From a phage: 64,000 nt of DNA. Location of the stretch: sequence record PZ452582.1. The stretch is one strand, 5' to 3'. Both the position numbers and the translations under genes were made by a program. Of this stretch, positions 14,034 through 15,373 are shown one piece after another (the stretch's first letter is position 1; each line of letters starts with the position of its first letter). The notes beneath the pieces are model-generated. The model ran no database searches. It worked only from the letters and a program-made list of their open reading frames with translations, and was not told the origin of the DNA.

Positions 14034-14594
14034 ATGATTAATAAAATTGTACATGAAATGGCTTTAAACGGAGATTCATATAAAATATCTGCCATAGTTG
14101 AAAATTTTATACTTAATAAAGTAAAAGAATATTTCACTGATTGTTCAGTTAGTTATCAAGAAAAAATGGTTTTAACCGATGATACTGAAAAATCAAATAA
14201 TTTATTTTGTTCGAATTTTATAACTAAGAAGCGTACTAGAAGATTTGATATTGTTATTTCTCGCAATGGTAAAAAGCATATAATTGAAATTAAACATCAA
14301 GTTGGTGGAGGTACAGCTATTGATTCGGTTGGAATATATTTAGAAGATAAAGAGAAATTAAAAGAATACACAAAAACTGAAAACCCTGTGTCATTGATGA
14401 TATTAGATTTTTTGCCATGCGGATATTATCCACGTAATAAATGGACAAAAAGAGAATCATTTACTGATAATCCAACCATCCAAGCAAGGTTTAATGAATA
14501 TGCTAAATCACAAAACGTGTTAGTATTACTATCAAATACATATGATGAAGAATTATATAATTCGTTTTTTGCTGCAATAAATGAGAGAATATAA
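14034..14594 (+). CDS. Hypothetical protein with PD-(D/E)xK-like motif, translationally coupled to dam
   Basis: 186-aa ORF; segment [19 protein letters not shown] has the D...ExK arrangement of PD-(D/E)xK nucleases; stop overlaps dam ATG (TAATG). Confidence 0.5.
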
Positions 14595-15373
14595 TGCTAG
14601 GAGCTATCGCGTATACAGGTAATAAACAGTCATTATTACCTGAACTTAAGCCTCATTTTCCAAAATATGACAGATTCGTGGATTTATTTTGTGGAGGTTT
14701 ATCAGTGTCTTTGAACGTCAATGGTCCTGTATTGGCCAATGATATTCAAGAACCAATTATTGAAATGTATAAGCGTCTTATTAATGTATCATGGGATGAC
14801 GTATTAAAAGTAATAAAGCAATATAAACTATCAAAAACATCAAAAGAAGAGTTTTTGAAATTACGTGAAGATTATAATAAAACTAGAGATCCTCTTTTAC
14901 TTTATGTTCTTCATTTTCACGGGTTTAGTAATATGATTCGTATAAACGATAAAGGAAATTTTACTACTCCGTTTGGAAAAAGAACTATAAACAAAAATAG
15001 TGAAAAACGCTTTAATCACTTTAAACAAAATTGTGATAAAATAATCTTTAGTTCATTGCATTTTAAAGATGTCAAAATTCTAGATGGCGATTTTGTATAT
15101 GTGGACCCTCCATATCTTATAACAGTTGCTGATTATAATAAATTTTGGTCAGAAGAAGAAGAAAAAGACCTTTTAAATCTTTTAGATTCTTTAAATGACA
15201 GAGGAATAAAATTTGGACTGTCGAATGTTTTAGAGCATCACGGAAAGGAAAACACTCTTCTTAAAGAATGGTCTAAAAAATATAATGTTAAGCATCTTAA
15301 TAAAAAATACGTCTTTAACATATATCATTCCAAAGAAAAGAATGGAACTGATGAAGTATATATTTTTAATTAA
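14594..15373 (+). CDS. dam: Dam DNA adenine methyltransferase
   Basis: 259 aa, same as T4 Dam; DPPY catalytic motif; sequence recognised. Confidence 0.93.

Follow-up and report, generated by a model that had tools for sequence, protein, structure and literature searches.

The locus described here raises the question of why T-even phages carry a dam gene, and of what the open reading frame (ORF) beside it encodes. In a 64,000-nucleotide (nt) stretch of phage DNA (sequence record PZ452582.1; the whole stretch is referred to as the window), an ORF of 186 amino acids (aa) lies directly 5' of dam. The window is from a Tequatrovirus, and its dam region is ~99% identical to many T2/T4-like phage records. 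The Dam methyltransferases of T2 and T4 have served as biochemical model enzymes for decades, and the benefit of Dam to the phage is unclear. With a confidence slightly better than even, we propose that the phage carries, in the ORF and dam, a Type II-like restriction-modification cassette directed at GATC, composed of a predicted nuclease and Dam. An earlier note on this DNA, made from the sequence alone, had pointed to the nuclease-like motif of the ORF, to its TAATG overlap with dam and to the resemblance of the pair to a restriction-modification module. The position of the ORF and the overlap were confirmed by the ORF list and the raw sequence. On the + strand, primase gene 61 (12709-13737) is followed by the ORF, dam and dCTPase gene 56 (from 15434).

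14034 to 14594, + strand: 186-aa ORF with an ATG start, encoding a predicted PD-(D/E)XK restriction-endonuclease-like protein (ORF list, raw sequence, PHROG 8706).
14592 to 14596, + strand: TAATG stop/start overlap, in which the TAA of the ORF (14592-14594) shares one base with the ATG of dam (14594-14596).
14594 to 15373, + strand: dam, a D12-class N6-adenine DNA methyltransferase of 259 aa (Pfam MethyltransfD12, E = 6.5e-51).

The Dam protein of the window is identical to T2 Dam and differs from T4 Dam at six residues. The GATC specificity of Dam is taken from the record annotation and from the classical work on T2 and T4 Dam.

The first point is whether the ORF product is a nuclease. AlphaFold2 was used to model the protein on the family alignment, with a mean predicted local distance difference test (pLDDT) score of 81.7 and a predicted template-modeling (pTM) score of 0.80. 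The modeled secondary structure includes the alpha-beta-beta-beta-alpha-beta core that characterizes the PD-(D/E)XK fold. The structural matches to the model include the nuclease domains of Can2 and VC1899, followed by BstEII, McrC, BsaWI, BsoBI, NgoMIV, PfoI, and Bse634I, and all of these are PD-(D/E)XK folds. Many of the matches are restriction enzymes that yield 4- or 5-nt 5' overhangs. Foldseek against the PDB concurs, with MunI at a template-modeling (TM) score of 0.55. Orthodox Type II restriction enzymes make up the best structural matches. The model thus shows a restriction-endonuclease fold, and the protein would belong to the EcoRI/MunI structural class. A search of the viral structures in BFVD gave weak generic PD-(D/E)XK matches and otherwise nothing but the family itself (MX01, uncharacterised).

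The catalytic residues are seen in the alignment. The earlier note had read a D...ExK motif in the stretch FDIVIS...HIIEIK; the motif is present within RRFDIVIS...HIIEIKHQ, with D72 at 14247-14249, E85 at 14286-14288, and K87 at 14292-14294, and these three residues are invariant across all homologues.

14247 to 14327, + strand: catalytic core codons D72...E85-I-K87-H-Q...G93-T-A-I-D-S98 (alignment A3).
14100 to 14102, + strand: codon of the invariant E23 (alignment A3).

Ten family members, with identities down to 29%, share E23, Q42, S54, R69, D72, H82, E85, K87, H88, and Q89 as invariant residues. G93-T-A-I-D-S98, P118, S120, and D125 are also invariant in the same 10 sequences. In the model, E23 is placed in the first long helix (15-33), D72 in the strand 66-77, and E85 and K87 in the strand 80-88. 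By sequence, E23/D72/E85/K87 is the canonical E...D...ExK arrangement of the PD-(D/E)XK superfamily. The invariant GGTAIDS loop after the catalytic residues has low model confidence, which would fit a loop that becomes ordered on DNA. The structure prediction gives a PD-(D/E)XK nuclease fold, and none of the three outcomes that the earlier note had named as fatal to its proposal (a non-nuclease fold, an unconserved motif, or a known unrelated function) was found.

The second point is the relation of the protein to known restriction enzymes. The lone lead at the sequence level is the Pfam DpnII family (PF04556, GATC enzymes), which matches residues 28-113 below threshold. Of the 8 family members scanned, 6 have PF04556 as their highest-ranking family (best E = 8.3e-5), with BanI as a shorter second match. 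Similarly, the PADLOC model REase_II matches the corresponding region (E = 8.5e-5). Real DpnII-family genes, including LlaDCHI of pSRQ700, were taken from plasmids and aligned, followed by alignment-alignment comparison via hhalign. A DpnII sequence was used as a search probe only, and later work used retrieved database sequences alone. The comparison of the phage family with the DpnII family gave P = 5.3e-4 over 94 columns. The score of 33.0 was above all 239 column shuffles (mean 14, standard deviation 2.5, maximum 24). D72, E85, and K87 were paired with D210, E225, and N227 of LlaDCHI, GGGT was paired with GGSK, and E23 was paired with the conserved Glu following the RKNRSG motif of the DpnII enzymes. 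A greedier alignment is collinear to both C-termini, in which the 186-aa protein spans only residues ~136-304 of LlaDCHI. We read the 186-aa protein as a probable distant relative, in minimal form, of the catalytic domain of DpnII; it is outside the DpnII family as currently defined.

Other searches were made with the protein and with Dam. HMMER against PDB chains at E <= 10, with the single protein and with the family profile, matched nothing, and NCBIfam gave only noise for the 186-aa protein. An extra protein search intended to deepen the DpnII profile was unhelpful; among the matches listed, only near-identical streptococcal LlaDCHI-like sequences were found. The first plasmid matches obtained with Dam belonged to AlwI-family (GGATC) systems and not to DpnII systems. 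The closest plasmid relatives of T-even Dam (~40% identity, loci L013 and L014) are Firmicutes/Gram-positive methylases of GATC/GGATC (AlwI-type) restriction-modification systems, a kinship that speaks in favor of the proposed cassette. The Dam-family genes of enterobacterial plasmids are only ~20-31% identical to T-even Dam.

The third point is the linkage of the ORF to dam. An exhaustive HMMER profile search of 1.84 billion proteins returned 12 representatives at E <= 1e-3, made up of the small family itself and a few weak or partial matches. Ten family clusters were found among 5.8 billion proteins, and further family loci were found in IMG/VR (2) and in JGI metagenomes (3). No relatives of the ORF were found in 185,579 bacterial and archaeal species genomes, and only T4-like phage sequences yielded members of the family. 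The protein is hypothetical or uncharacterised in each source that gives it a name, with one exception, the UniRef/GenBank label "head outer capsid protein" on the T2 copy, which is evidently wrong. In all 10 lineages with readable context, a D12 Dam gene starts -35 to +13 nt from the stop of the ORF. These lineages are the window and T2 (Tequatrovirus), MX01 (Dhakavirus), KPV15 (Jiaodavirus), and the metagenomic P0002, P0005, P0006, P0009, P0011, and P0013. The junction was read at the sequence level in eight lineages (-35 to +13 nt), and it is a 1-nt overlap, from called gene coordinates, in two more.

The identities of the ORF and of Dam between lineages are 65/76%, 41/62%, and 30/52%, respectively, so that the divergence of the ORF tracks that of Dam and is faster. 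The pair is found in at least two genome neighborhoods: in Klebsiella phage KPV15 and in the metagenomic contig L012, it lies near rIIA/rIIB instead of between genes 61 and 56. Since the ORF and dam occur together in different neighborhoods, the pair and not the site is the conserved unit, and the pair moves as a unit. The endonuclease and methyltransferase genes are adjacent, co-oriented, and co-inherited across the 10 lineages, as is expected of Type II systems. The resemblance to a restriction-modification module that the earlier note had raised is strengthened by these results, because every homologue with readable context is directly 5' of a Dam gene. The sole match at the sequence level is to GATC-specific DpnII-type endonucleases.

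Could the ORF instead encode a free-standing homing-type endonuclease? Such an enzyme would cut the empty 61-56 junction, or another specific site, in relatives without the cassette; its gene would be copied during recombinational repair, dam would be hitch-hiking cargo, and methylation would be irrelevant. This explanation is considered unlikely. Although the proteins have diverged by >70% and the genome neighborhoods number at least two, the endonuclease has stayed with one and the same cargo gene, which is unexpected for a site-bound enzyme. Moreover, no GIY-YIG or HNH module was matched in Pfam, PHROG, or NCBIfam, and there is no extra DNA-binding domain. The Type II restriction enzymes among the best structural matches, together with the weak DpnII signal that points to a short palindromic site, also argue against homing.

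The ORF and dam also appear to share their expression signals. The TAATG overlap would couple the ORF to dam translationally, and further signals lie in front of the ORF.

14022 to 14026, + strand: Shine-Dalgarno sequence GAGGA, 7 nt 5' of the ATG of the ORF (read from the sequence).
13979 to 14008, + strand: T4-type early promoter-like site, with GTTTAC at 13979-13984, an 18-nt spacer, and TGg-TATTAT, with the -10 at 14003-14008 (consensus scan).
13946 to 15410, + strand: approximate extent of the accessory cassette of ORF and dam, which is missing from RB14/RB32-type relatives.

The early promoter-like site has 9 of 12 consensus matches, plus a TG extension, and would act as a promoter for the ORF. 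The pattern GTTTAC-N17/18-TAnnAT is also found 5' of the ORF in the T2, MX01, KPV15, P0006, and P0013 loci, whose ORF proteins are 30-65% identical. Retention of this pattern across such diverged lineages implies that dam and the nuclease-like gene are expressed together and early. The ORF matches PHROG 8706 (function unannotated) end to end, with E = 7.6e-116. Its ratio of nonsynonymous to synonymous substitution rates (dN/dS) is 0.20 against phage MX01 (65% aa identity, dS ~1.5) and 0.12 against T2, with dS unsaturated in both comparisons. The PHROG match, the ribosome-binding site, the promoter-like site, and the low dN/dS indicate that the 186-aa ORF is a real, expressed-looking gene under purifying selection.

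Why, then, is the ORF missing from T4? The Tequatrovirus records were sorted by the state of the locus as follows.

ORF and dam: ~150 Tequatrovirus records, e.g. T2 and the window.
dam with a 3' ORF remnant: ~35 Tequatrovirus records, e.g. T4 and RB55.
Neither ORF nor dam: ~330 Tequatrovirus records, e.g. RB14 and RB32.
ORF without dam: no Tequatrovirus records.

The ORF is not rare: ~150 records carry it, the classical phage T2 among them, and in these it always occurs with dam, a pairing that the earlier note had wanted checked. Dam is absent from about two thirds of the Tequatrovirus records, and in RB14 and RB32, ORF030w directly abuts gene 56. From a restriction-modification or poison-antidote pair one would predict just such a pattern, in which phages have the two genes, the methylase alone, or neither.

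The earlier note had stated that T4 has no gene between 61 and dam, and had suggested that the ORF is an insertion. The first statement is correct for the annotation, in which the 309 bp between gene 61 and dam of the T4 reference are empty, but the alignment shows that T4 retains the last 28 codons of the 186-aa ORF as a remnant, together with a minus-strand ORF of 66 aa. The second statement has the direction reversed. T4 carries a 548-bp deletion between ATCACAAA repeats and keeps the 3' end of the ORF.

13959 to 14514, + strand: interval between the 8-bp direct repeats ATCACAAA (13959-13966 and 14507-14514); T4-type phages are without 548 bp and keep one repeat.

The T4 state is read as a deletion because the 3' remnant of the ORF is kept and the repeats flank the missing 548 bp. 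This loss takes out the promoter and codons 1-158 of the ORF. In a comparison with T4, Miner and Hattman in 1988 reportedly noted an insertion of 536 bp on the 5' side of the T2 dam gene, with no known homology, which matches the 548-bp difference found here. The T2 allele itself (L004 3030-3060; window 14568-14594) has a 1-nt deletion in a T-run, from T6 to T5, so that the protein has 181 aa and a changed C-terminus, and 13 nt separate the ORF from dam in place of the TAATG overlap. The T4 remnant shares this 1-nt deletion; therefore, the T4 deletion arose on a T2-like allele.

A mechanism can be proposed for the cassette. The ORF product would be a compact Type IIP-like PD-(D/E)XK restriction endonuclease and the functional partner of the downstream Dam. 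A bicistronic message would be made from the cassette's own T4-type early promoter, with the nuclease translated first and Dam translationally coupled. The nuclease would most likely cleave GATC without N6-methyladenine, and methylation of GATC by Dam would shield the phage's own DNA. The GATC specificity assigned to the nuclease comes from the linkage to dam and the weak DpnII signal. Because the E. coli genome is already Dam-methylated, the likely targets would be co-infecting phage genomes without Dam. The likely role of the cassette is selfish persistence, as a poison-antidote element, or that of a weapon in phage-phage competition. For the predicted nuclease, we infer nuclease activity, GATC specificity, methylation sensitivity, dimeric state, and biological target.

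A second explanation keeps an active nuclease and gives it a non-classical tie to Dam. The nuclease would be methyl-directed or hemimethylated-specific (MutH-/DpnI-like) and would nick or cut GmATC in the cytosine-containing host DNA, with glucosylated hydroxymethylcytosine (glucosyl-hmC) protecting the phage; alternatively, it would act in phage recombination or repair. The Dam-methylated host DNA is an obvious target, the nuclease is translated first in the module, and the catalytic residues are invariant, all of which would suit such an enzyme. However, the matches to the model showed no close structural similarity to MutH and included no MutH-, DpnI-, or Sau3AI-like structures, and the ORF is never seen without Dam. 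This explanation is judged improbable, to a similar degree as homing.

Several observations weigh against the restriction-modification cassette. No literature description or experimental report of the 186-aa protein was found. The PF04556 score of the window protein is 16.9 bits against a gathering cut-off of 23 (E = 0.0041), and the hhalign probability is just 30.6%. The ~150-residue N-terminal half of DpnII, with the invariant GxExGxDSNxRKNxxG motif that is present in 8 of 8 real DpnII-family sequences, is absent from the 186-aa protein, and the phage protein has ExK where DpnII enzymes have ExN. No DpnII-family proteins were among the 12 matches of the exhaustive profile search of 1.84 billion representatives. 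The substrate is also an issue, as E. coli DNA is Dam-methylated and T-even DNA has glucosyl-hmC at the C of GATC. Phages can dispense with the nuclease, as T4-type phages have deleted the ORF, the T2 allele is frameshifted at its C-terminus, and truncated alleles of 142 aa (phage G29) and 61 aa (KarlGJung) are annotated. Adjacent genes can be removed by one deletion, which weakens the statistical argument within one genus. Finally, GATC is the most depleted 4-base palindrome in the window, with 72 observed against ~205 expected (observed/expected, O/E, 0.35). This depletion was rejected as evidence for the nuclease and is uninformative, since RB14 (L027), without ORF and dam, has an O/E of 0.30; the depletion is lineage-wide and unconnected to the cassette.

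An inactive PD-(D/E)XK-fold protein, acting as a DNA-binding regulator or Dam cofactor or persisting as a decaying relic of a restriction gene, is the least probable explanation: the gene is dispensable, lost in T4 and truncated in some phages, and no activity is known to have been reported for T2 despite decades of work on its Dam, but the four canonical catalytic residues and the following loop are invariant to 29% identity, where a relic would lose them, and dN/dS is well below 1.

Other features were found around the cassette. The 66-aa ORF is hydrophobic (PHROG 2024; RB32ORF030w / RB69ORF029w) and occupies 13734-13934 of the minus strand, between gene 61 and the 186-aa ORF. It is convergent with gene 61, overlaps its stop by 4 nt, and shows conservation in T2, RB14, RB32, and MX01. 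T4 DNA contains it as well (about 3130-3440 of the T4 locus L001), but it is unannotated in NC_000866. A terminator-like hairpin with a T-run (13900-13929, + strand) lies ~160 nt past gene 61, within the 5' end of the 66-aa ORF, and it is the sole terminator-like site detected in 13600-15500. On the other side of gene 61, 5' of gene 61.1, two tandem ORFs at 11540-12181 (213 aa) and 12183-12539 (118 aa) share the C-terminal peptide SIDDQIFNAFMN(K/R)G and appear to be 61.2-like paralogues; the short form is found in T2 and RB14, and the long form in T4.

What would the cassette mean for T-even biology? With a cognate nuclease next to Dam in T2 and ~150 relatives, there is a testable reason for dam to exist, and the pairing explains the patchy distribution of Dam as both genes, methylase only, or neither. 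If the proposal holds, a strictly lytic, hmC-modified bacteriophage would carry a complete Type II restriction-modification module, which is unusual, and the cassette would be a candidate mechanism of exclusion between T-even phages. At 186 aa, the protein would be a very small restriction enzyme scaffold, which may recognise GATC. In the T4 reference, the 309-bp "intergenic" stretch contains the remnant of a gene as well as a conserved ORF that lacks annotation. A further-reaching proposal is put forward tentatively, and we regard it as doubtful. It holds that T-even Dam, rather than being chiefly an orphan methylase against restriction, is the antidote half of a GATC poison-antidote cassette and that the nuclease is a new minimal phage-only branch of restriction enzymes. 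T2-type carriers would destroy or gene-convert co-infecting Dam-less relatives, and the lone Dam of T4 would be immunity retained after the loss of the nuclease.

The proposed restriction-modification cassette can be compared with known systems. DpnII, MboI, and LlaDCHI (PF04556) similarly adjoin a Dam-family (D12) GATC methylase. Their catalytic half gives a weak collinear match to the phage protein, in which RRFD-IVI corresponds to KRFD-FxI, IEIK to IExN, and GGGT to GGSK. The catalytic Glu and the conserved Asp that comes next are spaced by 40 residues in the phage protein and by 39 in DpnII. However, the phage protein has 186 aa, while the DpnII enzymes have ~280-310 aa. The gene order is also different. 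In the phage, the nuclease gene is followed by one methylase gene, whereas in most of the bacterial DpnII systems retrieved, one or two methylase genes are followed by the nuclease gene; a Haloarcula plasmid is the exception among them. The MunI/EcoRI class (PDB 1D02 and 2OXV) has no detectable sequence similarity to the phage protein. MunI and EcoRI have AATT-cored sites and other methylase types as partners.

As a precedent that favors the proposal, complete virus-borne GATC restriction-modification cassettes are found in the chlorovirus CviAI system and in mel_015/mel_016 of the Marseilleviridae (PMC7253447). For the Marseilleviridae system, a role against co-infecting unmethylated relatives was proposed, and the relatives have both genes or neither (PMC7253447). 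The likeness to the phage cassette is that the genes for a nuclease and a GATC adenine-methylase lie side by side in a lytic virus, with a nuclease missed by standard domain searches (PMC7253447). The hosts of these viruses are eukaryotic and their enzymes are longer. Unlike the Marseilleviridae, the T-even lineage repeatedly lost the nuclease while keeping the methylase.

Type II restriction-modification modules, including virus-borne GATC systems, are already known. What is new is the minimal nuclease family confined to phages, the context of a lytic hmC phage, and the implication that the "orphan" Dam of T4 is a secondary state. T4 Dam is the same methylase gene at the same locus as dam in the window. 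The difference is that Dam is not an orphan in the window, T2, and ~150 records, and that the orphan state of T4 is secondary via the 548-bp deletion. T4 may have partly lost a phage-borne restriction-modification cassette.
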